A stretch of 64,000 nucleotides of DNA from Escherichia phage rV5_ev147. The position numbers and the translations under genes were made by a program. This document shows positions 416-53,038 of the stretch, piece after piece (positions within the stretch are counted from its first letter, which is position 1; each line of letters begins with the position of its first letter). The notes beneath the pieces are model-generated. The model worked only from the letters and a program-made list of their open reading frames with translations, ran no database searches and was not told where the DNA came from. Where the stretch lies: sequence record LR597647; one strand, 5' to 3'.

Positions 416-766
416 CTAACCAGTTGTTGACATTCGAATAACTTCTTCTGGTGGCAAAACTTTGGAAAATGTGCATCTTTTACCTCTCCCTTGTGTGGAT
501 ATTTCAACCACTCCTGCACATTCTAAAGTTTTAACGCACGCTGCTGCTTTTGTTTTCTTTATCCCAATATCTGCTGCAATTTTCCTTGTGCTGGGCGTGA
601 AGCGTGAATTTCCTCCAAGCTTATACCAGTTGTGCAGGTAGCAGTATACGATCTTGTCATATAAGTCAAGAACAACAACCTCACCAGTTGTGTCATTCAA
701 AACTTTTGACATAGACAGTATTTCAAGGGGGACTTTAAGATATAGCAGCTTATCCCCATCTTTCAT
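416..766 (-). CDS. Putative helix-turn-helix DNA-binding protein
   Basis: ATG at 766 with AGGAG upstream; segment STRKIAADIGIKKTKAAACVKTLECAGVV resembles an HTH; lies next to the palindromic site array. Confidence 0.4.
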   Translation of the reverse strand: MKDGDKLLYLKVPLEILSMSKVLNDTTGEVVVLDLYDKIVYCYLHNWYKLGGNSRFTPSTRKIAADIGIKKTKAAACVKTLECAGVVEISTQGRGKRCTFSKVLPPEEVIRMSTTG

Positions 767-813
767 ATCTCCTGATTCTCCTTGTGTGGCAATTTTCTTT
801 AAAATAGCAGGGA

Positions 814-1368
814 TTACTCCACGCTGTCAATAGCAAGACTCATTGCAATACGGTATGCCTCTTCTAATGGTAAGAGTCTCCCCCACACATCCCAACCGAC
901 ATCAAACTGCCTGCCAAACAACTGCTGTGTGGTTCCGTGAGCATGACCGAACAGTTGGACCGATCCGTGAGGCTTTCTGTTCCACTTTGCAAACTGGTAA
1001 TGGCTCATACAGATCAAATTCTTGTTGTGGCGAAGCTCGTAATAATCTACAACCTCATGACCGAACTCTTTCATAATTCTGACAGTCGTCCTTGTGTCAT
1101 GGTTACCACGAACAAGAATAATATGTCCGTTCAACATATTTAGAACATCTGGGAGCAATTTGTTAATATTCTTATCATTAGTGCACGCAATATCTCCTAA
1201 GTGAAACACAGTGTCTGCAGGTGACACAACAGAGTTCCACTTGGTGATGATCCCCGCATTCATACTGTCAAGATTGTGATCATACTGAGATCTGTGTTTT
1301 TGACATGAGTCAAACTCCATGACCCGCTGGTGGAGAAAGTGTGTGTCGCTTGTTACAAAGTATTTCAT
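814..1368 (-). CDS. Calcineurin-like metallophosphoesterase (Ser/Thr phosphatase or polynucleotide 3'-phosphatase type)
   Basis: Start refined to ATG 1368 (MKYFVTSDTHF) with GAGGA SD; motifs DTHF, GDIACTND, GNHD typical of metallophosphoesterases. Confidence 0.65.
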   Translation of the reverse strand: MKYFVTSDTHFLHQRVMEFDSCQKHRSQYDHNLDSMNAGIITKWNSVVSPADTVFHLGDIACTNDKNINKLLPDVLNMLNGHIILVRGNHDTRTTVRIMKEFGHEVVDYYELRHNKNLICMSHYQFAKWNRKPHGSVQLFGHAHGTTQQLFGRQFDVGWDVWGRLLPLEEAYRIAMSLAIDSVE

Positions 1369-1375
1369 ACATTCC

Positions 1376-1786
1376 TCATTTAAGTTTAATGCAGTTTTTA
1401 AGCTGGCGTTCCATACGATCCACAACCCTGTCTGGAACATCATGAATGCTTTTACTACCATGGCGGTTTTCAACCACGATTACGGTATAACTATACCCAT
1501 GACTGATCGCCATGTCAATATATTCTTGCACATATTTTTCTTTTGTAAATGTATTACTTACCACGATACGGTCGTATCCCATACGCATCATATCTTCTAC
1601 GTTATCTTTGCACCATTTTGCTGCAAGTGTTACTTTACTTGCATCCCAGTTGTAATTTCCATCATCGTCGTACCAGAACATGTCGTTCTCAAAATGTGGA
1701 TACAGACCTTCTAAAGATAGCGCACTTGCCAGTGTTGATTTGCCAGACCCTGGTAGACCACGCACGATATATAGCATTTTAGACAT
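1376..1786 (-). CDS. P-loop kinase, polynucleotide-kinase-like
   Basis: Start refined to ATG 1786 (GGAGGA SD); Walker A GLPGSGKST near N-terminus; stop overlaps the SD of the phosphoesterase gene. Confidence 0.5.
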   Translation of the reverse strand: MSKMLYIVRGLPGSGKSTLASALSLEGLYPHFENDMFWYDDDGNYNWDASKVTLAAKWCKDNVEDMMRMGYDRIVVSNTFTKEKYVQEYIDMAISHGYSYTVIVVENRHGSKSIHDVPDRVVDRMERQLKNCIKLK

Positions 1787-1886
1787 AGTAATCCTCCGTT
1801 TTAATTTCAACGATAGTATACCTAACTGTTTTGTTAATTTCAAGTGTTGACACTAGGTTATTTGTGTGGCAGGATAGACTGACAAA

Positions 1887-2822
1887 ATGACAAATGAGGA
1901 ACGTATGATGAAGTATTTTAATGCAGACGACCTAGTTGACAAAGGTCTTGTAACCAGCAGATATCACCCAGACCTTGGGTTAAAGATCTATAAATATGCC
2001 AGAAAAGTATTCTACAACAACTTATGGCATTTGTCTCCTCGATTACTGGAGTGCCGAGGCATTGTTGTCGGTAATGAAGGAAATGTTGTGGCATGGCCCT
2101 TTACAAAAGTGTTTAACTTGGGAGAAAATTCCACCAACCTGCCTGACAATAAGCTTGTGACGGCGGTAGAGAAAAAGAACGGATTCCTTGGTGTGGTGTC
2201 ATCTCATAAAGGTGAACTATTGTTCTCAACAACCGGGTCTCTTGATTCTCCATATTGTAACCTTGCAAAGGAAACCATCCAGGAGCAATGTGGTAATTTA
2301 GATCTTATCAAGAAGGTTATGGGCAATGAAAATATGACATTCATGTTTGAAATTTGTCACCCCTCAGATCCGCATATTGTTCAGGAAGATCATGGCGCAT
2401 ATTTGATAGGTTGCAGATATAATGATTCTGGAATAATGCTACCAGAAGCAGCTTTAGATGGGATTGCCAAATACCTTGGTGCAAAACGTCCTCACACTGT
2501 GCGTGAAATTCCGTTCAGTTATGCAAAAGAATTAGCTGCAGAAACAAGAGGTGAAGGGTATATGATTCGTAAGCCTTACTACCCTTATGATCTGCAGCTG
2601 AAGATTAAGTCTCCATACTATCTGGCACGGAAGGCCGTAATGAGGGGTAAAGCTTGGAAGATTTGGGATGATGATATCTTTAAACGTGTTGACGAAGAGT
2701 TTTACGGCATGGTAAACTTCATTCGTAACAACTACACAGAGGATGTATGGAACTGCCTCCTGGAGCAGGAACGCCGTGAGATACTCGATTACTATTTCCA
2801 CAACGAGAACTATATGCAATGA
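1887..2822 (+). CDS. Putative RNA ligase (Rnl2-like nucleotidyltransferase)
   Basis: Candidate motif I EKKNGF, motif IV EGYMIRK, motif V LKIKS; divergent from the kinase/phosphoesterase pair. Confidence 0.45.
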   Translation: MTNEERMMKYFNADDLVDKGLVTSRYHPDLGLKIYKYARKVFYNNLWHLSPRLLECRGIVVGNEGNVVAWPFTKVFNLGENSTNLPDNKLVTAVEKKNGFLGVVSSHKGELLFSTTGSLDSPYCNLAKETIQEQCGNLDLIKKVMGNENMTFMFEICHPSDPHIVQEDHGAYLIGCRYNDSGIMLPEAALDGIAKYLGAKRPHTVREIPFSYAKELAAETRGEGYMIRKPYYPYDLQLKIKSPYYLARKAVMRGKAWKIWDDDIFKRVDEEFYGMVNFIRNNYTEDVWNCLLEQERREILDYYFHNENYMQ

Positions 2823-3169
2823 AGAAGTTGATTGTGTGGCTAGATGACTTGAGAGATCCGTCAAAGTACGGGCTCCAAGACGCTGTTTGGCTAAAGAATT
2901 CCTCCGAGTTTATAGATTTTATTAACGATAATAGAAAGCTCTACAGACGCGTTTCTGAGTGGCATATGGACAACGACCTTGGAGAGGTATTCGAAGGGTA
3001 CGATTGCCTATCTATGTTGGAGGAAAAATTTGTATTTGGTAAGCCTCCTGTAGTTGACAACGTGAAGATTTTCGTGCATACTTCTAACCCATCAGCGGCT
3101 CGTAAATTCATGCTTGCAGCTGACTCGTTTAAAAAGTTTGGAATAGAGATTAAACAAAACATCTACTGA
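2819..3169 (+). CDS. Hypothetical protein, first gene of the Sir2 operon
   Basis: ORF overlaps the upstream stop (ATGA); 9 bp before the Sir2 gene; no motif recognised. Confidence 0.45.
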   Translation: MKKLIVWLDDLRDPSKYGLQDAVWLKNSSEFIDFINDNRKLYRRVSEWHMDNDLGEVFEGYDCLSMLEEKFVFGKPPVVDNVKIFVHTSNPSAARKFMLAADSFKKFGIEIKQNIY

Positions 3170-3177
3170 GGACACTT

Positions 3178-3939
3178 ATGCGACGACTGATTATTATCTC
3201 CGGTGCTGGTTTGAGCGCTGAATCTGGTATTCCCACTTTCCGATCTGGTAGCACTGCAATGTGGGAGAATTTCAGCATCGATGAGGTGTGCAACATCCAC
3301 ACCTTTGCCAAGAACTACTATAAGGTGCATGACTTTTACAATGCACGTCGTGTAGCTTTAGGCAGTGTTGAGCCTAACCTTGCACATCTTCGGATCGCTG
3401 AGTGGTATTCCCGCTGGTCTGGTCGTGTGATCAACCTTACCACCAATGTAGATGATTTGCTGGAGCGTGCTGGTGTAAAACATGAAGATATTTTACATGT
3501 CCACGGGTATTTGCCAGAAATAGTCTATGAGGACGATGAAGGAAGTGACGTCATTAAGGACATTGGATACTCTGAGGTAGACGCAGGAAAGTATACCTGG
3601 GTTAAGCCTAATGTGGTGTTCTTCGGAGAAGTAGCTCCGAAGTATACAGACATGTATGACCTGTTGACTTCTCTTACGAGCAATGATATGGTTATCCTTG
3701 TAGGGTGCTCCAACACAGTTATCAATTTTAACTGGGAGCTATTCCCTGCCTGCAATAAGGGAACCAAACTACTGATCGTTAATAAATACGACTCACAGCA
3801 TCTAGAGGAGAATGGCATTTCACGTAGTGATATTTACCAGTATGAGGATCGTGGCATCCCAGTTTGGTTTAACGGTGCGGTTGATGCCTTCTCTGATAAA
3901 ACATTCATTGAGACTGTAGAAAACTTTATGGAACTTTAA
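3178..3939 (+). CDS. SIR2-family NAD-dependent deacylase / ADP-ribosyltransferase-like protein
   Basis: Canonical sirtuin motifs GAGLSAESGIPTFRS, TTNVDDL, HVHG; no CxxC zinc module seen. Confidence 0.7.
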   Translation: MRRLIIISGAGLSAESGIPTFRSGSTAMWENFSIDEVCNIHTFAKNYYKVHDFYNARRVALGSVEPNLAHLRIAEWYSRWSGRVINLTTNVDDLLERAGVKHEDILHVHGYLPEIVYEDDEGSDVIKDIGYSEVDAGKYTWVKPNVVFFGEVAPKYTDMYDLLTSLTSNDMVILVGCSNTVINFNWELFPACNKGTKLLIVNKYDSQHLEENGISRSDIYQYEDRGIPVWFNGAVDAFSDKTFIETVENFMEL

Positions 3940-3952
3940 AAGGAGACCTTTA

Positions 3953-4666
3953 ATGCTGAATACTAAATTAATTGACAACCTGGAAAAACTATCCCAACCT
4001 GAAAACTACCTTTGGTCTGCCAACTGGGTGGAAAACTGGAACCGTGTGGCAGCTAAAGTGAAAAAATCATACACACCATTCGAATTACAGCTTAGCTTCA
4101 TTGAGGAAGAGTTCAATGAAGTTTTGGAAGAGCTGGAGAAAGGTGATGGTGGAGATCACCTGCTAAAGGAGGCCTGCGATCTTCACGTTGTCACAAGTTA
4201 TGCAGCTTATCTTGTTAATGACAATCACGAAAAGTGGTCAAACCTGTTTGATAATCCACGAGGTCTTAAGTTCAAGATCGGTGAGTTCTATGATACACTG
4301 ATCGCTGCGAAAAACACCTCTAAGCAAAGAGCATCCGCTTACCGCTTAGCAGAGTTGTCAACAGCTTTGCTGTTCCAGCTTCGCGGCGATGTGTGCGGGA
4401 TGATGCGTAAGGTTCTCAAATCGAATGACAGCAAGTTTGCACGGGTCAACCATCTACGGTATTCACACGGTGCCAGTGCAGATATGCCTGCTGAACAACT
4501 CATCGAGTTGGAGATTAAAGATCTTGAGCGACGCTTTGATGGTCGATATGAAGGTTTTGTTGCTAAGGAAGAATTCTACAACGGTAATAAAGTTATCATA
4601 TTCCTTGACAGTAAAGGTAAGATCATGAAGCCTTCGAGCTTCAAGGATGTAACAGAGTATATTTAA
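3953..4666 (+). CDS. Putative MazG-like nucleotide pyrophosphohydrolase
   Basis: EEEFNEVLEELEK...EACDLH resembles the EExxE...ExxD MazG motif; 14 bp after Sir2. Confidence 0.35.
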   Translation: MLNTKLIDNLEKLSQPENYLWSANWVENWNRVAAKVKKSYTPFELQLSFIEEEFNEVLEELEKGDGGDHLLKEACDLHVVTSYAAYLVNDNHEKWSNLFDNPRGLKFKIGEFYDTLIAAKNTSKQRASAYRLAELSTALLFQLRGDVCGMMRKVLKSNDSKFARVNHLRYSHGASADMPAEQLIELEIKDLERRFDGRYEGFVAKEEFYNGNKVIIFLDSKGKIMKPSSFKDVTEYI

Positions 4667-4672
4667 CAACAT

Positions 4673-4698
4673 AGCCGGGATTACCCGGCTTTACTTGT
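4673..4698 (+). terminator. Rho-independent terminator after the Sir2 operon
   Basis: AGCCGGG-atta-CCCGGCT stem-loop followed by TTTACTTGTT. Confidence 0.5.
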
Positions 4699-4699
4699 T

Positions 4700-5038
4700 G
4701 TGGAAAGTATGCAAGTGAGGCAGATAGTTATGTACAAGCACTCTAGAGATCTTGAAAACGATGCTGTGTTTGGGGATCAGATGAAAGAGTTGGTTAAACT
4801 CATAGGCAGGATAGAGGATAAGTTTGACACTAAGATCTACATCGACAGCAAAGTATTCAACCACAAAATATGGACAAATCTGTGTGTTGGACTACATGGA
4901 GATAAAGATGCGGTAAATTTAGTTGTAATTAAGTTCATAGTGTGGCAGAATAAAACTATAAATTATTACGATCCACATCTGCTTGTTTACCCGATAAAAG
5001 ACCTATTAGATAAGGAGGACTGCAATGCCGTTATTTAA
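4700..5038 (+). CDS. Hypothetical protein
   Basis: ORF in dense co-directional array; start not refined. Confidence 0.4.
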   Translation: MESMQVRQIVMYKHSRDLENDAVFGDQMKELVKLIGRIEDKFDTKIYIDSKVFNHKIWTNLCVGLHGDKDAVNLVVIKFIVWQNKTINYYDPHLLVYPIKDLLDKEDCNAVI

Positions 5039-5294
5039 TCTTGCTAAACCTGTAGAAGCACACCAGTTTGACGGAAGCTCTTCATCAGTATCTGATCTGC
5101 AACGGTGGATTGATACAGGTGTGTTTACATCGTCACCTGTTCGGACCAGAGATCTTCGTCGTATGTGTGAGCTTGTAGAGCCGTTTGGTAACCTAGTCTT
5201 GCACCAGGGTGATTGGCTTGTTGATTTTATGGGGGACTGGTTGGTAATGAGTAAAGAAGAGATGTTTAAAATTTTTAAGGAAGAGGTAGAGTAA
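5025..5294 (+). CDS. Hypothetical protein
   Basis: ORF with GGAGGA-like SD upstream; no motif recognised. Confidence 0.4.
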   Translation: MPLFNLAKPVEAHQFDGSSSSVSDLQRWIDTGVFTSSPVRTRDLRRMCELVEPFGNLVLHQGDWLVDFMGDWLVMSKEEMFKIFKEEVE

Positions 5295-6577
5295 TGCATC
5301 AAATCAAAACAACACTGTACGCACTGAACAAAGATGGCAGCTACCAACAGTGGAAAGTATTCACGGATGGTGATAAGGTTATCGTAGAGTTTGGCAAGCT
5401 TGATGGTAAACTGCAATACAAAGAGACGATCTGCACACCTAAGAACGTGGGTCGCGCCAATGAGACTACAGCTGAGCAACAGGCCGAGCTGGAAGCGATC
5501 AGTAAGTGGGAAAAACAGGTCCGACTAGGGTACGTGGAGAGTATGGAAGATTGTGAGCAAGGTGTTGATCTTTTACCAATGTTAGTGCATGACTACCTGA
5601 AGCGTGGCAAGGCACTTAAATTACCTTGCTGGATCTTGCGTAAGTTAGATGGCCTTCGTCTACTTGTTGTTTTCCAGAATGGTGAGCCTAAATTTATTTC
5701 CCGTGGTAATAAGTCCTACCCTATTCAAGGAAAGCTTCTGGAGCAACTTCGCTCTTTCCACCTAACCACCGGGATTAAACAGCTCGACGGAGAGCTCTAT
5801 ATTCATGGTCTTCCTCTGCAGAAAATAGTGTCTCTTGCTAAACGGTGGCGCACACAGGAAGAAATTCAGGCCGAGATCGATAAAGACTACAAGGCAGATA
5901 AAAAACGCCGTCAGGCTGCGATTAAGGCAGGTTTAGCAACATACAAAAACTTCAACAAGATGGACATTCCTGTTGATGTTGAGCCTGTTCGTGATGATTT
6001 GCGTTACGGAGGGTACTGCAGCTACGACTTAGAGTATCATATTTTCGATATTCCTAGCGATAAGGTGTGGTGGGATCCTGAAACAGAGTCTGGACGCTGT
6101 AAGGATCTTATGGAGGCAAATGGTGCTATTGCTTCTTTGATGCTTGATCATATTAAGGTTGTTGATGCAGAGCTTGCATACACAGTTGATCGGTGCGAAG
6201 AGTCTGTTGGTATATTTATGTCTGAGGGATATGAAGGTACCATTATGCGTAACTTCTGTGGTAAATATGAGTATGGTCAGCGAACATCTGAAGCATTGAA
6301 ATGGAAAAAGTTCAACGACGCAGAGGTGAAAGTTATTGACGTTGAGAAAGATAAGAATGATGAAGGTGTTCTTATCTGTGTTGACAAGGAAGGTGTTGTT
6401 GTTAAAATGAAGATGAAAGGCACGCACGAGGAGCGTAGCTATGACAGGATGCAGGAAATGATCGGCAAGTTTGTCACCTTCAAATATCAAGCAAGGACAG
6501 AAGACAACAACTACCAATTCCCTGTCGGTATCTGCGTCCGAAATGTTAACCCAGACACTTGGGAGGTGCTGGAATGA
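5294..6577 (+). CDS. ATP-dependent DNA ligase
   Basis: Motif I KLDGLR, motif IV-like EGTIMRN, motif V-like KWKKF; ATGA overlap with upstream ORF. Confidence 0.55.
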   Translation: MHQIKTTLYALNKDGSYQQWKVFTDGDKVIVEFGKLDGKLQYKETICTPKNVGRANETTAEQQAELEAISKWEKQVRLGYVESMEDCEQGVDLLPMLVHDYLKRGKALKLPCWILRKLDGLRLLVVFQNGEPKFISRGNKSYPIQGKLLEQLRSFHLTTGIKQLDGELYIHGLPLQKIVSLAKRWRTQEEIQAEIDKDYKADKKRRQAAIKAGLATYKNFNKMDIPVDVEPVRDDLRYGGYCSYDLEYHIFDIPSDKVWWDPETESGRCKDLMEANGAIASLMLDHIKVVDAELAYTVDRCEESVGIFMSEGYEGTIMRNFCGKYEYGQRTSEALKWKKFNDAEVKVIDVEKDKNDEGVLICVDKEGVVVKMKMKGTHEERSYDRMQEMIGKFVTFKYQARTEDNNYQFPVGICVRNVNPDTWEVLE

Positions 6578-6701
6578 TGTAGGGAGGTTCAGTAGGTAAC
6601 GGTAGCCAATTGAATGATGGTTTTTCAATTGGCACCTACATAACCACACTATGCAGTGTTGTTGATCGGGTTAGTTATGAGTAAACTGGAGAGTATGAAA
6701 A

Positions 6702-40936: not shown

Positions 40937-40992
40937 GTTTACATGACTAATAGTTTACATAGCTAACTGTTTACGCATAAACTGTTTACACA
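40937..40992. repeat. Four GTTTAC(A/G) iteron-like repeats at 15-16 bp spacing
   Basis: GTTTACATG 40937, GTTTACATA 40953, GTTTACGCA 40969, GTTTACACA 40984. Confidence 0.7.
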
Positions 40993-41002
40993 GATATGAT
41001 AA

Positions 41003-41302
41003 GCCATGCCATTCGTTTGCATGATAACAATAACGATCAACAACAATAAAGACTGAAATGATAACGTTGTTGATTTGACTGACTAACAATTAACAGGCTA
41101 ATAATCTATGACATAATATAAAAGCAGGGCAACTATTAGCAGATCTATAGTTGCCTTGCTTGTTATGTCATGATTAACTAAATACAAGGCAACTATGATC
41201 TGATTAATAGTTTGCAGACAAACTATCACGGGGGTGATGGTTACTGCTTTTATATTATGTCGCGACTCCGTCGCGCCATGCCATTCGTTTGCATAGTTGC
41301 CT
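41003..41302. repeat. Composite repeat locus: 20-bp direct repeat, 18-bp inverted repeat and GGCAACTAT palindromes
   Basis: GCCATGCCATTCGTTTGCAT at 41003 and 41275; GACATAATATAAAAGCAG (41110) with exact reverse complement at 41244; GGCAACTAT/ATAGTTGCC palindrome at 41128-41155. Confidence 0.75.
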
Positions 41303-41955
41303 TATTGTTACAGATAAAATAATTGTATTGTTAATTATTTCTTATCTTTCTATTAGTCATCTAATGATTCCAGTTAGTATAGTAACGTACAGTAAACATT
41401 AGACGACTAAAGATTTCTCTGATTATGATAACTTGCCGTGACAATTTCAGACTGTTTACGAAAAATGTTGACACCTGAGCTGATTTATGTTATGCAATTT
41501 AAACGAATAATTATTTTATGCAGGTATTGACTATTCTGTTATTCTATGGTCGGAATAAATACTTAGCAGGCTATAGAATGGTGAGCGTACGTAAATTCTG
41601 AGATCTGTCGGCTATAGTTATACTCGATTTTTCACGTAGAACACGCTTTTTGGTTTGTGTAAGTGTATGACTTATAAAGATTTTTAGTTGTTGACAAGAT
41701 ATTGAAGATGTGCATCAGGTTAAATTTTGTGCAATAGCTGCATTACGTGCAATTTTGGAAGGAAAACGGGTAAAAATAGCACCGCTACCACACAATGAAA
41801 GGTTATGCAATAGTTATTTTACATGTATATTTGTACAGTGTGTGGGATTGATGGCTCGTCAATTATTCCACTTGCCAGGTAGGGCCGTTTATGGTAGGGA
41901 GGAAGAGCAGACAAAAAGAAAGGGACCTAAGCCCCTTGATAATTCAGTTAAAAAA

Positions 41956-45291: not shown

Positions 45292-45498
45292 GGTTTTAAC
45301 TCCTATCTATCCGGTTAATGATTGGAGGCCTCACCGCCCCCCCGACACCCTTTATTATCCATATTGTAGGACTTGATGCAAGTACTTCTTTAAAAATTTT
45401 TTAAGCGCCTTGGGGGCCGCTGTAACGCCAAAATAATAAAGGCTATGCAACCGCATAGCCTTTATGTGATTATATCGCTGCAGGCCCTGCCAGGGGCC

Positions 45499-45849
45499 TT
45501 ATTTTGCATTCTTTCCTATATTGCCGCTACGGTACCAGCGTTTACGGTGAAAATGGTAATAATCACCATCGGCATTAAACATCAGATGATTTTCAATAAC
45601 CAGCTTACGAAGGTGGGCCGGATCTTGTTCCATTCTTGCCAGATTCTGGCGGCTGTTACGTAAGCGGATAAATTCCATATTCAGGCCGTTGATTGCAGCA
45701 TGGATGTCAAAGTAACCACCTTTGAGACGTTCACGCATGGAGTTAAGCTCAACACAATATACAGATTTCTCACAAATCAAGGTATTAGCCAGGGCGCGGA
45801 CCTGGGCAAGGGGGTTAAGCTCATTAAGGTAATATAGTTTTACTTTCAT
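45499..45849 (-). CDS. Hypothetical protein
   Basis: 116-aa ORF. Confidence 0.4.
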   Translation of the reverse strand: MKVKLYYLNELNPLAQVRALANTLICEKSVYCVELNSMRERLKGGYFDIHAAINGLNMEFIRLRNSRQNLARMEQDPAHLRKLVIENHLMFNADGDYYHFHRKRWYRSGNIGKNAK

Positions 45850-45866
45850 AAAATCACCTGCTGAAA

Positions 45867-46172
45867 TTAGTTTGAGAAAACATCGTTCACAATAGCGATC
45901 ACAATGCCGCCCACCTTGTCACGGTCAACAATGCACAAATCACCATAGATCATGTGGTAGTCTGGATGATCTTTCACGGAATAATCAATGAGTGTTTTCT
46001 TGTCATCCAGCTTACTAACTTCCATTCTCATAACGATATGAGAATCATCAAAGGCATTATTCCGAAAAGTCATAACCTGACCGCCAGGGCACCCGGTGAT
46101 TTCCACCTCCACGCCGTCTACGATCTGACCATCAAAGAAATAAAGATTATTAGCCTGGATAAACATGATCAT
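45867..46172 (-). CDS. Hypothetical protein
   Basis: Start refined to ATG 46172 after AAGGAG; driven by 44-bp repeat copy 1. Confidence 0.4.
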   Translation of the reverse strand: MIMFIQANNLYFFDGQIVDGVEVEITGCPGGQVMTFRNNAFDDSHIVMRMEVSKLDDKKTLIDYSVKDHPDYHMIYGDLCIVDRDKVGGIVIAIVNDVFSN

Positions 46173-46210
46173 TACTCCTTTTTGCACTGATTATTTTAAC
46201 AGGGTTTAAA

Positions 46211-46254
46211 TTTACTTTATTGATGGCCCTGGAGTCAAGGCCATCTAAAAATAA
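46211..46254 (-). promoter_or_regulatory. Conserved 44-bp element copy 1: promoter-like with palindrome around -35
   Basis: Exact 44-mer TTTACTTTATTGATGGCCCTGGAGTCAAGGCCATCTAAAAATAA; on minus strand GATGGCC-TTGACTCCAG-GGCCATC then 18 bp to TAAATT. Confidence 0.5.
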
Positions 46255-46257
46255 ATT

Positions 46258-46458
46258 TTACAGGCCTACAATCTCTTTAATTCGTTTTACTGCTGCCTCA
46301 GCGCCTTGAGGGTAAAAATTATGGTAACCAATCACGCGAGTGATACTAATCGCCGTTTGATGATCTTCATAATCACCTTTAAAGATTTCTTGACCGTCAA
46401 TCAGCACGGCAATTTTTTCTTCTTTTTTGAAGTTAATAACGCGGATATTGTTGCTCAT
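46258..46458 (-). CDS. Hypothetical protein
   Basis: 66-aa ORF; 5' hairpin GGGGAGacaCTCCCC and AAGGAG SD. Confidence 0.4.
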   Translation of the reverse strand: MSNNIRVINFKKEEKIAVLIDGQEIFKGDYEDHQTAISITRVIGYHNFYPQGAEAAVKRIKEIVGL

Positions 46459-46552
46459 TTTGTTTCTCCTTTTGGAACTTTGTCTATGCGGTGGGGAGTG
46501 TCTCCCCGTTGATTGTTATTATCCATATTCTGGATCGGATTGCAACACTCAG

Positions 46553-46594
46553 GGAGAAAAAAATTTGAAAAGTTAGGCCCCAGGGATCGGGGCC
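46553..46594 (-). terminator. Rho-independent terminator (minus strand)
   Basis: On minus strand GGCCCC-gatccct-GGGGCC followed by TAACTTTTCAAATTTTTTT. Confidence 0.5.
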
Positions 46595-46598
46595 GTTA

Positions 46599-46718
46599 TC
46601 AATTACTTACAGCGATAAAATACATCCCTACGCCTAACAATATTTCAAGGGCGATGATCTCAAGCCATACCATAACACGGCGCGCCTTATCGGTGCGGGG
46701 CTTATCCTTGGGTGTCAT
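46599..46718 (-). CDS. Small hydrophobic peptide (39 aa)
   Basis: ATG 46718 after GAGGAAA SD; hydrophobic core; below ORF-track cutoff. Confidence 0.3.
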   Translation of the reverse strand: MTPKDKPRTDKARRVMVWLEIIALEILLGVGMYFIAVSN

Positions 46719-46937
46719 CGTCTCCCCCTTTCCTCCTGTTAGCAGTGACGTGGTTTGCAATGGCCCCCAGGAGTATTATCACCACGCACATTACAAGAAA
46801 AATTATCTCTGTCGTTGTTCGATCCATTGTTATAAAATTCCTTAAGATCAGGCCTGAAAATAAAGCTTTCGTTATTGAATCCATCCCGCCAGGCGGCTGG
46901 CTTCAAATCTTCACTAAAGGGGTTAATTAACGTGGCA

Positions 46938-47309
46938 TTATTTAAACGGCTGGTCCACATATTTTCTATTCCTCTCAAATAGGCGATCCGCCTCAGTTAA
47001 ACAAATCTCATGGGCGTGATCTCTGGTTTTAGCTTCATCGAAAACCTGTTGTGCAAGGCTGCAACGTAGGGAGACTGGAAGATCGCTGTAGTAGGCGTTG
47101 ACAAATGTTTGAGCGTCGTACAGGTCTGAAAATACTTTACCCTTTCTATTATTCCCCTTGTCAACAATTGCAAGGATAACAAGTACAATAGTTGCAACCA
47201 CCCCCAGGAAAATAGATATAATAAACCATAAAAAAGCGGATCTACCCATCTTGCCAGCGATCCAGGCGTTGAACAAGGCAACTACTACAGCCAAAATAAT
47301 AAATTCCAT
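46938..47309 (-). CDS. Membrane protein (two TM helices)
   Basis: Start refined to ATG 47309 after AAGAGG; MEFIILAVVVALFNAWIAG...FLWFIISIFLGVVATIVLVILAIV. Confidence 0.45.
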   Translation of the reverse strand: MEFIILAVVVALFNAWIAGKMGRSAFLWFIISIFLGVVATIVLVILAIVDKGNNRKGKVFSDLYDAQTFVNAYYSDLPVSLRCSLAQQVFDEAKTRDHAHEICLTEADRLFERNRKYVDQPFK

Positions 47310-47373
47310 TCTATGTACCTCTTTTGCAGTTCTGTTTAACAATAAGGCGGCAAATATGCCGCCTGTTACCTGA

Positions 47374-47754
47374 TTAAAAAATATCGCCGTAAATCTTTCC
47401 GCTTTCTGCCCACACCACCACGCGGGGCATGTTATCCCATACATCTTGTTTCAGATTTAACGCGTGCAATTCTTCGGTGGTGCTCATACCGGGCACGGGC
47501 TGATTGTATACTGCAAAACGACCGCCTGCATAATCATAGGCCAGAGTTAAATCACACTGGATCATCTTTTTGATCATGGCGTTAAGCATAGCGTTAGCCG
47601 CGTACTGGTCACGTTTTAAAGGCAACTCTTTGATTAGTTTGCGATAGTTTTCGATATGGTCGCACACTGTTTCACGTGGAAGATCTTTCATATCTTCACG
47701 GAATGTAACCAGGTTAAACATAACGGTGTCAATAGCTTTAGTAGTGTTTTTCAT
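47374..47754 (-). CDS. Hypothetical protein
   Basis: Start refined to ATG 47754 after AAGAGGAAAA. Confidence 0.45.
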   Translation of the reverse strand: MKNTTKAIDTVMFNLVTFREDMKDLPRETVCDHIENYRKLIKELPLKRDQYAANAMLNAMIKKMIQCDLTLAYDYAGGRFAVYNQPVPGMSTTEELHALNLKQDVWDNMPRVVVWAESGKIYGDIF

Positions 47755-47844
47755 GATGTTTTCCTCTTTGTTTTGTGGGGGGCAAGTCATCTCGCCCCTT
47801 GAGTTTTTAATATAGCAGGTTTTTAGATTATTGCAACACTTTAT

Positions 47845-48468
47845 TTATGAAAAACTCATCTCCCCATATTCATCCACATCAAACCGCCAATCATTGGCTT
47901 CAATAAGGCCGATCAGGTTTTCGGTAGTAAACTGTTCAAGATAGGCCTCCTCCAGGTCTACGTAAACCTTGCGGGATAGCTCCCGTACCGTCTCGGTGAT
48001 CAGCTCTTCCAGCTCTTCAACTTTGTCCTCTTGCTTGGTGGTCAGGTCTAGCCAATTAGTATCGATGCACCCTCCTATTGTGTTTTCGTGATGATAATGG
48101 CTAAACGGGATACGTTCAACACTGGCTGATAACTCGCCATCGTGCATTGTGCCGAACAAGTGACGAATTGATCGGAACTTGGTCAGGGCCTTTACTTTAC
48201 GCAAGAATTTTTCTAAATCCACGTTTTCAGCACTGATTGACGCGCCATCGCCTTGACACCAAAAGCCGGACCAACGTACTTCGGTATCTTCAAGGCCGTA
48301 CTCTGGAAAGACATATTCTTTATAGTGTTCAATTACACTTTCTGCAAAAAAATTATCCCCGCTGTGTTCTTCTCTTTCGCGGACCATTTCAATAGCTTTT
48401 TCTTTTTGTTCGTCGGTCAGCACGTCGAAAGATAAATTGTAACCTGTGGTAATGTTAACGGTGGTCAT
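47845..48468 (-). CDS. Hypothetical protein
   Basis: 207-aa ORF; promoter TTGACA-16-TATACT, 5' hairpin GGCGGGAAaactTTCCCGCC, AGGAG SD. Confidence 0.5.
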   Translation of the reverse strand: MTTVNITTGYNLSFDVLTDEQKEKAIEMVREREEHSGDNFFAESVIEHYKEYVFPEYGLEDTEVRWSGFWCQGDGASISAENVDLEKFLRKVKALTKFRSIRHLFGTMHDGELSASVERIPFSHYHHENTIGGCIDTNWLDLTTKQEDKVEELEELITETVRELSRKVYVDLEEAYLEQFTTENLIGLIEANDWRFDVDEYGEMSFS

Positions 48469-48542
48469 GATATTTTCTCCTATTTTCTTTGTTAGTGGCG
48501 GGAAGTTTTCCCGCCTGTGTGTTTAAGTATACTTATCGAGAT

Positions 48543-48803
48543 TTACTTGTCAACACTATTTTTTAAATTATTGTGGCGTAAAATGTTCAAGATCTCTTCA
48601 ACGTCATCAACACGGCGGCAATTTTTAAACGCTACCAGTTGCCCCAGTATTTTAATCACTGGACGGCCTTGCCAGTGCCCTTGGAGAAAGCGAGCTTTAA
48701 CTTTATCGGTGGAACTATCACGCCACCAAATGGCCTTGTTGTTGCAGTAGTAAAAATTATTCAGGACAACATCAACTTTATCAAAATTTTTTAATTTACG
48801 CAT
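48543..48803 (-). CDS. Hypothetical protein
   Basis: 86-aa ORF. Confidence 0.4.
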   Translation of the reverse strand: MRKLKNFDKVDVVLNNFYYCNNKAIWWRDSSTDKVKARFLQGHWQGRPVIKILGQLVAFKNCRRVDDVEEILNILRHNNLKNSVDK

Positions 48804-49045
48804 GGCGTTTACTCCTTTCTCTCTTTGATGTGGTTAGTATAGCTAACCTGTTTAAGATGTCAAGCTTTAAATAAAATCACTGTCAATGATATTTTTAACG
48901 CCATAAAACGGCCCTAAGCGATGTTTTCAGGTTAAAGGGGGGGCGATTGCATAGGTGGGGCCTTTTTGGCGCTTACAGGGCCAACCGGGGGCGCTATTCG
49001 TAGGATAGAAATAAAAAGCCCCGCACAATGGCGGGGCGTTGGTTG

Positions 49046-49243
49046 TTATTTGCCTTTGTGGCGGTATCGTTCCGCCTGTCGTTCACGTTCCAAAAGCAGG
49101 CCCGGTAATTTGCGATCATAATGATTCCGCCAGATCTTCCCAAATCTTTTTGGCTTATTCAGTTTATTGTTGCGCTGGCGGCGTTCCGGCAGCTCTTCGG
49201 AAGCATGAGATCGCTTTACAATCTTCTCAAAATTAATCTTCAT
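49046..49243 (-). CDS. Hypothetical basic protein
   Basis: Start refined to ATG 49243 after AAGGGGGG; Arg/Lys-rich. Confidence 0.4.
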   Translation of the reverse strand: MKINFEKIVKRSHASEELPERRQRNNKLNKPKRFGKIWRNHYDRKLPGLLLERERQAERYRHKGK

Positions 49244-49297
49244 ATATTCCCCCCTTGCTAACTTCAATATTGGCCTGAATAGCCCGGATACGGCGCT

Positions 49298-49585
49298 TTA
49301 TAACTTCCTGATCTGTGTGATCGTATCCCAAAAGTCTACGATTTTTGCGCCTCCAGCCTTTAGGCGGTATAGTGTTTCTTGCATCTTGTAAGCCGGGATC
49401 GGTCGCGGTGTTACCTGGTCGCCCTTCTCATTCTTGTACTTGATAATATAGTCTTCATTGTCGTTGAATACCCAAAACGGGTATTCTGTAAGGGCGTTGC
49501 TATCTTTTTCGTTTTTAGATTGGATCTTGTTTACAATTAAAGCCGTAGCAATAGCGCCAATAATAAAACTTGCCCCGCTGATCAT
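49298..49585 (-). CDS. Membrane-anchored protein
   Basis: Start refined to ATG 49585 after AAAGGAGAAAG; N-terminal TM ISGASFIIGAIATALIV. Confidence 0.45.
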   Translation of the reverse strand: MISGASFIIGAIATALIVNKIQSKNEKDSNALTEYPFWVFNDNEDYIIKYKNEKGDQVTPRPIPAYKMQETLYRLKAGGAKIVDFWDTITQIRKL

Positions 49586-49660
49586 GTACTTTCTCCTTTC
49601 ATTGTATTGATAAACTATCTTTATAGATGGCCCTGCTACCAGGACCACCGAAAAAACAGC

Positions 49661-49906
49661 TTATTTGACGATACCGACAAAACAGATCCCGCCTTCCCCT
49701 ATATAGGCAATATCGGTAATTTTATAATTTGTCAAGATCCGCGTGTTCAGATCATTAATAAAATCGGTCATCGCGTTGGTGTAGTTGTCTTCCGTGTCTA
49801 AGGCATAATCCCAGGTGTACACCTTTTTACGTCCGAAGCCTTTTACCATGATACGGGCGCTTTTGGTGTTGGTAGGGGCATAATATTTGGTGATTAGTGC
49901 TGCCAT
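49661..49906 (-). CDS. Hypothetical protein
   Basis: 81-aa ORF driven by 44-bp repeat copy 2; TAGGAG SD. Confidence 0.45.
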   Translation of the reverse strand: MAALITKYYAPTNTKSARIMVKGFGRKKVYTWDYALDTEDNYTNAMTDFINDLNTRILTNYKITDIAYIGEGGICFVGIVK

Positions 49907-49949
49907 GGTTTTAACTCCTATGCATTAGTTCAGTGTTAACAGTATAAAG

Positions 49950-49993
49950 TTTACTTTATTGATGGCCCTGGAGTCAAGGCCATCTAAAAATAA
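49950..49993 (-). promoter_or_regulatory. Conserved 44-bp element copy 2
   Basis: Identical 44-mer to 46211-46254. Confidence 0.5.
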
Positions 49994-49995
49994 TC

Positions 49996-50337
49996 TTACT
50001 CGTTTTCTTCCAGTTCTGCAAGCTCTTCTTTTGCTTCTTCTAACTCTGTCTGTAATTCCTGGTATTCTTCATCGTCCTCAATATCCAGGCTGTCGATGTA
50101 GTCGCTAAATCCGCAGCGGTAAGCGATAGGATCTAGCTCCTTGAGGATACGCGACGGAAGAAAAGAAATGTTTCCGATCATAATTTCGCCGTAGATCTCG
50201 TCTAACCATTCATCATAGTTTTCGTCGTACTTGTCCTCGTCGATTTCAAAGTTATCGATCTTGTTCTCAAGGTCTGCGATCTGTTTTTTCAGTGCGGCGA
50301 TCTGAATAGCTTTTTCTGCGGCGGTCATAGTAGTCAT
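49996..50337 (-). CDS. Hypothetical acidic coiled-coil protein
   Basis: 113-aa ORF; promoter TTGACA-16-TATACT and 5' hairpin GGGAAaactTCCC upstream. Confidence 0.45.
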   Translation of the reverse strand: MTTMTAAEKAIQIAALKKQIADLENKIDNFEIDEDKYDENYDEWLDEIYGEIMIGNISFLPSRILKELDPIAYRCGFSDYIDSLDIEDDEEYQELQTELEEAKEELAELEENE

Positions 50338-50416
50338 GGTGTTTTCTCCTTTTGTGTGCTCTGGGAAGTTTTCCCGTTTACGTGTTTAAGTATATCAATC
50401 TAAGTTAGCTTGTCAA

Positions 50417-50536
50417 TTAAAAATTTAAGAAAAATTTTGCAAAACTGTTAGCGCTACTCATTAACATTTGCGCCAGGATGTAACCGACAACGCAGGCGAT
50501 AATAGTTACCTTTGTGTATTGGCGTGTAGTGCTCAT
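50417..50536 (-). CDS. Small hydrophobic peptide (39 aa)
   Basis: ATG 50536 after AAGGGGG; MSTTRQYTKVTIIACVVGYILAQMLM...; driven by 44-bp repeat copy 3; below ORF-track cutoff. Confidence 0.35.
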   Translation of the reverse strand: MSTTRQYTKVTIIACVVGYILAQMLMSSANSFAKFFLNF

Positions 50537-50570
50537 CTTAAAGCCCCCTTTTTCGCTTAGCTGAGATTAA

Positions 50571-50614
50571 TTTACTTTATTGATGGCCCTGGAGTCAAGG
50601 CCATCTAAAAATAA
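50571..50614 (-). promoter_or_regulatory. Conserved 44-bp element copy 3
   Basis: Identical 44-mer to 46211-46254. Confidence 0.5.
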
Positions 50615-50616
50615 AT

Positions 50617-51021
50617 TTAGTAAGTTTTAAGTACTTTACCGTCTAACCTGTCAAGCTGGATCTCAATAGCTGCAGAGAATCTATTGTACACCACATCGCC
50701 CATAGAATCCAACCAGTCTATGACATTATACACTTGCTCTTTGTTCTTGCAGGTCCGGATCCGTTTCATGATGTAAGCCGGATCAATATTGGTACTCTCG
50801 TTGGTGCTCCCCTGTACCTGGTTTGCCGTATTAGTTACATCTTTAATGGCCTTTACCACCACCTGGAATGGCTTTAAGGTGCCTTTTGCGTTCATCTCAC
50901 GCGCTTTTGCGGCGCGGTTGTTATATGTTACACAACGGCGGCAAATGTTGATCAAATGCATGTCAATAATTTTTTCATCGTTTGCCAGTTCATTCATGAT
51001 GCGGCGTACGTTCTTATTCAT
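50617..51021 (-). CDS. Hypothetical protein
   Basis: 134-aa ORF; 5' hairpin GGCGGGAAtgtTTCCCGCC and SD upstream. Confidence 0.45.
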   Translation of the reverse strand: MNKNVRRIMNELANDEKIIDMHLINICRRCVTYNNRAAKAREMNAKGTLKPFQVVVKAIKDVTNTANQVQGSTNESTNIDPAYIMKRIRTCKNKEQVYNVIDWLDSMGDVVYNRFSAAIEIQLDRLDGKVLKTY

Positions 51022-51103
51022 GATCTTTTTCCTTTGTGTTGGCGGGAAACATTCCCGCCTTTTGTGACTAGTTTACTTGAATTTTGCAGCGTGTCAACAA
51101 TTT

Positions 51104-51502
51104 TTATTCGTGGGCGCATGTTACAATGTGCTTTTTATAGCCAAGGTGGTTAGCAAGTGCCGACAAAAACTCTTCTTCATAGATCCAGCCGTTGGCAGTG
51201 ATCCCCATAGCATTTAATGCGCTCTCAAGTGCTGCATTAGCTTTATCGTAACCGTGACCGCTCGCCTTCCCGCCAGTATAACCGTACTTATTGTTCTTGT
51301 TGTCGTGAATCCAAAAAACGCAGTATTGAGTGTTCCCGCTGGCGGCGGCATAATACCGGATCTCAGCTACTTCGTGCAAATTATTGTCATCGTCCAGGCC
51401 AACCAGATTATAAGCCTTGTAGAATCCACGATCACGGCGGCAGTTCTTGACATCAGAAAAAGAAAAGTCCGCATTATCAAAGTTAAAGGTAGTGGTTTTC
51501 AT
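51104..51502 (-). CDS. Hypothetical protein
   Basis: 132-aa ORF. Confidence 0.4.
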   Translation of the reverse strand: MKTTTFNFDNADFSFSDVKNCRRDRGFYKAYNLVGLDDDNNLHEVAEIRYYAAASGNTQYCVFWIHDNKNNKYGYTGGKASGHGYDKANAALESALNAMGITANGWIYEEEFLSALANHLGYKKHIVTCAHE

Positions 51503-52440: not shown

Positions 52441-52566
52441 CTAAATGAGAACTTTTCTCATTTCATAAATTTAGTTAGCATGCTAATTACCTACCGTGAC
52501 AATTCTATATAAAATAATACCTCCTAAAATATTTCCATATACAAATTTTAAAAATCCATTTCCGAA

Positions 52567-52718
52567 AACGAAAAATCGCTTTCGTTCCCAAAAATTTTAG
52601 ACCTGGTGCTGGACCAATTTCAAGAAAATCCGATTCAGAAAACGAAAAACAGATCGAGTACTGAGAAGTTTATCGAGAAAAATTTTCAGAAAATTCAATC
52701 TTTGAAACGAAAAACAGA
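52567..52718. repeat. GAAAACGAAAAA direct repeats in a non-coding stretch
   Basis: GAAAACGAAAAACAGATCGAGTAC at about 52637 and 52695 (24 bp, exact); related GAAAACGAAAAATCGCTTTCGTT palindrome at about 52567. Confidence 0.6.
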
Positions 52719-53038
52719 TCGAGTACCTAGAAAGCTGCACCGCAATTTCAAGATGGTGGTTAGATTATTACCATAAAAGGTCAAGGGTGAGTGGGAAAGT
52801 TCTGGTAGAGGGGTGTGAGCATACGCGGAAAATCTAGAATGGTAGTCCGGAATATGGTGCAAACGATAGGATGAGTGGTTCAGCTCGTCGTGCCTACTCT
52901 GAAAAAATCCATTTTAGTTTTCGATCCATTTTCTGATTTTCTAACAATTTTAAAATATCTGGCCGGGTGAAATATCAAAAGGAGGAAATCCATTTTAGAA
53001 ATCCTCCTTATACTTGATATGTCAGAAATTTTCAAGTA

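Follow-up and report, generated by a model that had tools for sequence, protein, structure and literature searches.

A repeated intercistronic RNA hairpin in Vequintavirus genomes, a candidate signal for RNase III-type processing

Results

Four copies of an element lie in gaps between minus-strand genes

We analysed a repeated intergenic element of Escherichia phage rV5_ev147 (sequence record LR597647) in a 64,000-nucleotide stretch of DNA (the window, to whose positions all coordinates refer unless another record is named). A 44-nucleotide (nt) sequence, TTTACTTTATTGATGGCCCTGGAGTCAAGGCCATCTAAAAATAA, matches the plus strand exactly at 46211, 49950 and 50571 (copies 1, 2 and 3), as a preliminary description of the window had reported, and no such match is expected by chance (100 shuffles). 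Further matches at three or fewer mismatches were found neither in the window nor in 100 shuffles. Copies 1 and 3 are identical across 50 nt. A fourth, diverged copy with 68% identity (copy 4, 49613–49662) had been overlooked. The motif search across the rest of the genome that the preliminary description had suggested, run with a covariance model and by sequence on the whole rV5_ev156 genome (LR694165.1, Vequintavirus), returned only these four copies, which are confined to 4.4 kb.

All four copies occupy gaps separating open reading frames (ORFs) of the minus strand, and the ORF positions agree with the earlier placing of each 44-mer ahead of a minus-strand gene. Copy 1 lies between ORFs of 66 amino acids (aa; 46258–46458) and 99 aa (45867–46166), copy 2 between a 113-aa ORF (49996–50337) and an 81-aa ORF (49661–49906), copy 3 between a 134-aa ORF (50617–51021) and a 39-aa membrane-peptide ORF (50417–50536), and copy 4 between the 81-aa ORF and a gp185-like ORF. 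The three 44-mer copies start 0–3 nt past the stop codon of the upstream gene, and the start codon of the next gene follows ~35–45 nt downstream. Along the gene strand the order is upstream stop codon, UUAUUUUUA, GAUGGCC-UUGACUCCAG-GGCCAUC, AAUAAAG-UAAA(U/C)U, ~35–45 nt, Shine-Dalgarno sequence (SD) and ATG. As DNA, the minus strand reads GATGGCC-TTGACTCCAG-GGCCATC, with TTGACT followed after 18 bp by TAAATT or TAAACT, exactly as first described.

Minus-strand RNA of every copy folds into a two-tier hairpin

The minus-strand RNA of all four copies forms one long hairpin with the same minimum-free-energy architecture: an AU-rich lower stem of 10–13 bp, an asymmetric 2/3-nt internal loop, a 10-bp upper stem and a tetraloop. 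In copy 1 (46208–46258, minus strand) the lower stem has 11 bp and the tetraloop is ACUC; copies 2 (49947–49997, minus strand) and 3 (50569–50617, minus strand) adopt the same fold, and in copy 2 the stop codon of the upstream gene lies within the base of the lower stem. Copy 4 (49610–49664, minus strand), a diverged paralogue, has a 13-bp lower stem, a 2/3-nt internal loop, a 10-bp upper stem (GGUGGUCCUG/CAGGGCCAUC) and the tetraloop GUAG, and is without TTGAC. The internal loop is UA/AAU in copies 1–3 and UC/UAU in copy 4.

The 7-bp palindrome of the preliminary description, extended by U.G, U-A and G-C to 10 bp, makes up the upper stem. With its loop it occupies 46222–46245, 49961–49984 and 50582–50605 (minus strand) in copies 1, 2 and 3, where U-A and U.G pairs lie beneath the closing G-C. 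The AU-rich flanks of the palindrome pair with each other as the lower stem, one U.G pair included, a pairing that had gone unnoticed. The unit is a hairpin of ~50 nt and not a 24-nt palindrome.

The predicted folding energies of the minus-strand RNAs are −23.6 kcal/mol (z −6.15) for copy 1, −21.1 kcal/mol (z −4.5) for copy 2, −22.7 kcal/mol (z −6.2) for copy 3 and −28.2 kcal/mol (z −7.0) for copy 4, and none of 200 shuffles folded as well. The plus strand gave −15.4 kcal/mol (z −2.9) for copy 1 and −9.2 kcal/mol (z −1.5) for copy 4. The covariance model, R1, scored the copies at 76–86 bits in the sense orientation (copy 1, 80.9; copy 2, 83.6; copy 3, 86.4; copy 4, 76.1) versus 28–40 bits in antisense (38.9 for copy 1), a gap of ~40 bits. 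Under DNA folding parameters copy 4 loses its lower stem, which makes a hairpin in single-stranded DNA less likely.

The hairpin is conserved through compensatory change

We compared the region with 14 further Vequintavirus genomes and three stretches of two IMG/VR contigs. The set comprised 60 copies with 36 distinct 68-nt sequences, 35 of which were aligned (from 17 phages or contigs). Across 14 phages, with the window as reference, identity is 98.6% over the element (21 differences in 1496 nt) versus 91–93% in adjacent coding and untranslated sequence (a flank divergence of ~7–9%), which upholds the earlier argument that its exact conservation implies selection.

Within the three-copy family, substitutions are confined to the tetraloop, the loop-closing pair and the first base of the 3' internal loop; the remaining stem positions and the flanks are invariant. 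The loop-closing pair shows two changes, the only ones at a paired position: C to U, which retains a G.U pair, and one G to U, which breaks it. Copy 4, found in every related genome sampled, differs from copies 1–3 at 14 of 44 positions and keeps every pair. Its upper-stem changes are A-U to G.U, C-G to U.G and U.G to C-G; those in its lower stem are A-U to U-A, U-A to G.U, A-U or G-C, and U-A to C-G, compensatory doubles included. Alleles within copy 4 also covary (C-G versus U-A), and its variation is limited to the tetraloop and compensated lower-stem pairs, except for indels in the Alma copy. That copy has indels in both arms and still folds (−25.9 versus −7.8 kcal/mol antisense). A copy 3 variant from IMG/VR, in which TTGATA lies 20 bp from TAAATT and the loop has 5 nt, keeps the fold (−26.2 kcal/mol); at the otherwise invariant U.G pair it carries U-A.

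RNAalifold, given the 35 distinct sequences and unprompted, returned the same 20 pairs, four of them with compensatory double changes. Paired cells amounted to 92.9%, compared with 36–54% when the partners were slid by 1–3 columns, and none of 500 shuffles reached the observed pairing or covariation score. G.U accounts for ~13% of paired cells (A.C on the opposite strand), and A.C or C.A appears on the sense strand in only 7 cells. These data show that selection acts on the RNA helix of the transcribed strand and not on a palindrome in duplex DNA, and the element very probably functions as a sense-strand RNA hairpin of some kind.

One copy has lost the fold. In Gotham, copy 3 (L005, 1641–1685) carries a 5-nt GGGCC deletion in the 3' arm that leaves −9.8 kcal/mol (z −1.0); it represents either a natural knock-out or a sequencing compression at the hairpin. 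The same deletion cuts the spacing between the hexamers to 13 bp, and the downstream 39-aa ORF is intact.

The preliminary description had explained the 7-bp inverted repeat as a DNA operator, at which a dimeric regulator would occlude the −35 element of three co-regulated promoters. The repeat around TTGACT is indeed perfect, and across ~45 copies its arms are invariant and its centre variable, a pattern that half-sites and a spacer would give equally. The centres of these half-sites, however, are 17 bp apart, and conservation and covariation reach into the flanks, which pair mutually. An operator should have equivalent half-sites indifferent to strand; copy 4 instead carries two changes among seven positions in one arm only, both of them tolerated as G.U on the sense strand. 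In duplex DNA so strong a strand asymmetry of the fold would have no meaning, and the promoter that would be occluded is itself weak (see below). An operator role for the palindrome is unlikely, and we consider the model of a dimeric repressor very improbable in view of the larger, strand-specific and covarying RNA fold.

The overlapping sigma-70-like hexamers are a weak match

In copies 1–3, sigma-70-like hexamers separated by 18 bp lie on the minus strand at 46209–46238 (TTGACT, TAAATT), 49948–49977 (TTGACT, TAAACT) and 50569–50598 (TTGACT, TAAATT), with the −35 hexamer in the apical loop and the −10 hexamer in the 3' strand of the lower stem. This part of the preliminary description stands; the co-regulated promoter class built on it lacks support. 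TTGACT-18-TAAAYT agrees with the consensus at only 9 of 12 positions (10 of 12 in the TTGACA variants), and sites of the 9/12 level occur ~32 times per 14 kb in shuffled sequence. About 11 promoter-like sites at 10–12/12 lie within 14 kb nearby. The strong ones in the region have TTGACA, a spacer of 16–17 bp and TAnAnT, unlike the hexamers of the repeat. Three of these strong promoter-like sites carry, after the −10 element, a hairpin in the 5' untranslated region (5'-UTR), GGCGGGAA..TTCCCGCC, and belong to a cassette family shared with phi92. These promoter-hairpin cassettes run along the minus strand from 48553 to 48497, 50416 to 50363 and 51097 to 51041, and phi92 (L037) has at least seven copies across its early region. 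A phage-specific −10-like or late-promoter motif was also considered; because neither ATAAAG(T/A)A nor the GGCCATC arm recurs elsewhere in the genome in comparable context, we dropped this idea.

The anatomy of the element invites comparison with the promoter-early stem-loops (PeSLs) of the T4-like phages RB49/phi1, PST and nt-1 (Arbiol et al., 2010, PMC2839356; Comeau et al., 2014, PMC4122927), likewise repeated intergenic cassettes of ~50–100 bp among small ORFs of unknown function. In both, an AT-rich stretch holds the stop codon of the upstream gene, the −35 element may be overlapped by a stem-loop, an SD and ATG follow, and recombination between two copies deletes or inserts the intervening genes. 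The element could on this model be a PeSL-like composite cassette, primarily a working sigma-70 early promoter for the downstream ORF, with a stem-loop that attenuates or blocks read-through from upstream. The order of parts (stop codon in an AT-rich stretch, stem-loop over the −35 element as in one of five PeSL subclasses, −10 element, SD, ATG) fits, two copies bound a cassette indel (see below), and PhagePromoter labels the Gotham element a promoter. TTGAC is retained in ~43 of 45 copies of the three-copy family, with a variable sixth base that is often the consensus A.

PeSL promoters, however, are consensus-identical and very strong (PMC2839356), whereas the match here, with its 18-bp spacer, is at a level that shuffled sequence reaches readily, and the strong promoter-like sites of the region are of another kind, three of them with a hairpin after the −10 element. 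Copy 4 retains everything but the −35 hexamer, one copy holds its fold with a 20-bp spacer, and a promoter leaves the lower-stem covariation unexplained. The stem lacks both polyG/polyC and a terminator-like tail; with no U-tract after it, termination by E. coli RNA polymerase is not expected. Further differences from PeSLs are that the phage is a Vequintavirus and not T4-like, that only four copies exist, and that what is conserved is a long RNA helix with covarying pairs. These phages have a separate and closer counterpart of the classical PeSLs in the TTGACA promoters with their 5'-UTR hairpins. The structure persists in copy 4 and in the IMG/VR variant although the promoter does not, and the promoter is therefore not the main constraint on the element; at the DNA level a weak overlapping sigma-70 promoter, predicted from the hexamers, may play a secondary role. 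We regard a primarily promoter-based function as possible but rather doubtful, and it is not exclusive of RNA processing.

A stable hairpin directly behind a stop codon might also be an intrinsic (rho-independent) terminator, and the annotation of phage Murica marks copies 1 and 4 as such. However, AAUAAAG or UAUAAAG comes after the upper stem and mixed sequence after the whole hairpin, a U-run is absent in both orientations (a U-rich run lies on the 5' side), and a terminator scan that detects canonical terminators nearby skips the element. We reject this reading because the U-tract is absent, and consider it extremely improbable.

The hairpins are placed inside predicted operons

Upstream of copies 2 and 4 lies a strong predicted early promoter (50389–50416, minus strand; TTGACA-16-TATACT with TG, 11/12), homologous to rV5 P192, that would drive sense transcripts across both copies. 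A second early promoter, upstream of the 134-aa ORF (51070–51097, minus strand; TTGACA-16-TAAACT, 10/12; rV5 P194), would drive sense transcripts across copy 3. Downstream, a predicted intrinsic terminator, GCCCCGC...GCGGGGC followed by TTTTTATTT (49018–49037, minus strand), closes the operon that holds copies 2 and 4, and a terminator-like hairpin with a T-run (45436–45465, minus strand; rV5 t177) follows the genes after copy 1. Our scan found no terminator between the upstream promoter-like sites (10–11/12) and these downstream terminators. With strong promoters upstream (51097 and 50416) and terminators downstream (49037 and 45465), the hairpins would be operon-internal.

The neighbouring genes all belong to PHROGs of unknown function, apart from a T7 gp1.1-family protein downstream of copy 4. 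This 65-aa ORF (49046–49243, minus strand; PF08200, 41 bits against a cutoff of 21) shares an operon with copies 2 and 4; T7 gene 1.1 comes after the R1.1 RNase III site. The window matches LR694165.1 at record positions of about 64001–128000; at ~49328 it has one base fewer than that record (GTATCCCAAAAG versus GTATCTCCAAAAG), which leaves the gp185-like ORF downstream of copy 4 frameshifted; apart from this base, the 16 kb compared with LR694165.1 are identical.

A candidate RNase III-type processing and stabilising signal

The hairpins have a strand-specific covarying structure, are under purifying selection and lie inside promoter-to-terminator units. By analogy, we propose that they are intercistronic processing and stabilising signals of the phage T7 R1.1 type, our preferred reading, to which we assign a probability of about 0.5. 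Each copy would be transcribed within a polycistronic early minus-strand mRNA and fold into the ~50-nt two-tier hairpin, whose quasi-continuous helix of ~20–23 bp would be bound by host RNase III. Cleavage once, within the internal loop or next to it (the prediction is near CAUC-AAU|AAAG), would leave the upstream message with a protective 3' hairpin, and the RNA of the downstream cistron would begin ~30–40 nt ahead of its ribosome-binding site. We infer both the enzyme, RNase III, and the cut site.

Substrates of E. coli RNase III typically span about two turns of helix (~20–22 bp), possibly by coaxial stacking; where an internal loop is present, only one strand is cut, and a 3' hairpin remains that protects the upstream RNA (PMC1540722). 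All four copies have a helix of this length, with a 10-bp upper stem and a lower stem of 10–13 bp. A conserved asymmetric loop separates the stems and would confine cleavage in the same way, and the predicted promoters and terminators would make the position of the hairpins intercistronic. A cut at the internal loop would free a stem-loop of 26–29 nt, close to the 28 nt of the stem-loop released from R1.1 (PMC1540722).

The T7 early RNase III sites (R0.3, R0.5, R1, R1.1 and R1.3) are likewise intercistronic in the polycistronic early mRNA of a virulent coliphage, and promoters often adjoin RNase III sites there too. The five sites, which we folded for comparison, are likewise two-tier hairpins of ~20 bp in total, with G.U-containing upper stems of 9–13 bp, apical loops of 3–5 nt, and UA and UG pairs beneath the loop-closing pair. 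On the 3' side of the internal loop, T7 sites are cut at UAU|GAU; here AAU or UAU is followed by AAAG, and the UAU of copy 4 is that of T7. The Vequintavirus hairpins differ from the T7 sites in that there is no sequence homology, the lower stem is nearly pure A-U, three copies are near-identical and not merely similar, and processing is only predicted.

RNase III recognition boxes lie at a fixed distance from the cut: in the distal box UA and UG, in the proximal box GC, AU or UA, AU, and AU or UA or a non-Watson-Crick pair (Pertzev and Nicholson, 2006; rules from one minimal R1.1 substrate). Copies 1–3 have a canonical distal box, U-A then U.G, directly beneath the loop-closing pair. In their proximal box, position 2 is A-U and position 4 is A.A, non-Watson-Crick as in R1.1; these rules accept both.

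Several observations weigh against assigning the hairpins to RNase III. Positions 1 (U-A) and 3 (G-C) of the proximal box are non-canonical, off the optimum of the minimal R1.1 substrate, and the distal box of copy 4 is U-A, C-G, with C-G at position 2. An Rfam scan of 45500–51200 at E ≤ 1 returned no matching family and two sub-threshold, unrelated matches elsewhere. The R1 model found nothing significant in T7 (700–6700) or in the phi92 early region, where its best score was 17.8 bits (E 0.17) and only the AU-rich stem was matched, so the likeness to known sites is resemblance and not homology. The lower stem starts at the upstream stop codon, and terminating ribosomes may therefore open it. 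Most of the covariation separates the two paralogue families, and for this reason independent covariation events are few. The retention of TTGAC is a hint of a promoter constraint, for which the RNA model has no need. Finally, no Vequintavirus transcriptome or RNA-end study was found in the literature searched.

The same structural evidence would suit a structured RNA that acts without RNase III, either by stopping 3'-5' exonucleases once RNase E has cleaved in the AU-rich flank or by binding a phage-encoded RNA-binding protein through which the stability or translation of the adjoining cistrons is controlled. The AU-rich single-stranded stretches beside the hairpin resemble, in our judgement, RNase E contexts. 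A plain exonuclease barrier, however, requires neither a conserved lower stem nor an asymmetric internal loop; the length of the helix and its UA/UG box favour RNase III specifically; and the neighbouring genes, in PHROGs of unknown function, include no candidate RNA-binding protein. We consider such a role quite unlikely.

Copies 2 and 3 bound a 621-bp cassette

Copies 3 and 2 bound a 621-bp cassette (49994–50614, minus strand) that contains the 39-aa ORF, the strong promoter at 50416–50389 with its 5'-UTR hairpin, and the 113-aa ORF. In ECP32, ECP26, phiWec189, ime, magaca and IMG/VR contig L013 the cassette is precisely absent and a single hybrid element is left, with the upstream flank of copy 3 on one side and the downstream flank of copy 2 on the other. 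The junctions were examined in ECP32 and phiWec189; ECP26, ime and magaca show the same hybrid match in a single piece. Copies 3 and 2 are near-identical direct repeats, and homologous recombination between them therefore removes (or adds) the two-gene cassette. Chimeric queries for deletions between copies 2 and 1 or copies 3 and 1 matched no record in the collection. The cassette is an indel bounded by motif copies, as in PeSLs, and its loss or gain, which we see as a side effect of the repeats, resembles PeSL-mediated gene shuffling in T4-like phages (PMC2839356).

Distribution and annotation

The element occurs in 120 phage records at 347 places, usually with three copies each, and in 107 of them the best copy is 100% identical. 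No relatives outside Vequintavirus were found with Rfam, with the R1 model in T7 and phi92, or in IMG/VR, where a pattern scan and a protein-anchored scan yielded only two Vequintavirus contigs. In a tblastn search with the 81-aa gene between copies 2 and 4, homologues outside the genus came only from unrelated phages; a syntenic comparison at greater distance was therefore not available.

The promoter and terminator tables of the rV5 genome paper omit the element (PMC3606486), and literature searches for its sequence, for rV5 promoters and stem-loops and for Vequintavirus transcriptomes returned no description of it. Public annotations conflict, calling it a promoter in the Gotham record (PhagePromoter) and a terminator in the Murica record. 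The element is thus not previously described and is mis-annotated in public records; the type of mechanism is already familiar.

Other repeats and records

Other repeats were seen in the window. At 259–344, four tandem units of 21–22 nt, GTGTCCGTATCACGGACAGTTA, each with the inverted repeat TGTCCGT..ACGGACA, look like iterated protein-binding sites near the start of a plus-strand gene block. A gene-free stretch at 52542–52732 holds three repeats of ~52 nt at a spacing of 65–74 nt, one of which overlaps a 17-pair hairpin; these may be an origin or another regulatory array, and an analogous triple repeat lies in a gene-free stretch of phi92 (L037, 6298–6502). The interval 40955–41700, free of genes and probably equivalent to the 'non-coding' box on the rV5 map, contains long near-perfect hairpins (41109–41201, ~−24 to −26 kcal/mol) and a 20-nt sequence repeated exactly at 41003 and 41275. 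Among the database records, seventeen 'Campylobacter phage' entries (GenBank MG0656xx; host C. jejuni) are ~95% identical to E. coli Vequintavirus genomes over the region and are likely mislabelled or contaminant assemblies.

Discussion

In its proposed action the element is most like the T7 early RNase III sites and in its genome dynamics like the PeSLs; it is homologous to neither. Phage mRNA hairpins that are cut by host RNase III, altering the stability or translation of adjacent genes, include lambda sib and the lambda N-leader. Those are single, gene-specific sites tied to lysogeny, whereas here four paralogues stand in early operons of a virulent phage.

The element might also be coded twice, as an RNase III-type RNA hairpin and as a working sigma-70 promoter, with its near-identical copies serving as portable recombination joints, by which gene cassettes are gained and lost, in a PeSL-like system of independent origin outside the T4-like phages. 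We hold this combination to be unlikely; were it true, the downstream cistrons would be expressed by processing of read-through transcripts or by initiation of their own.

The case carries a caution, that hexamer matches within conserved repeats can be by-products of RNA structure. It corrects the annotation of about 120 genomes, and repeat-mediated recombination explains a recurrent 621-bp polymorphism in gene content. The rV5-like phages are widely used as candidates for therapy and biocontrol, and the literature searched holds no map of their gene expression. If the proposed processing is true, they would be the second phage group, after the T7-like phages, in which paralogous processing hairpins punctuate early polycistronic mRNAs.

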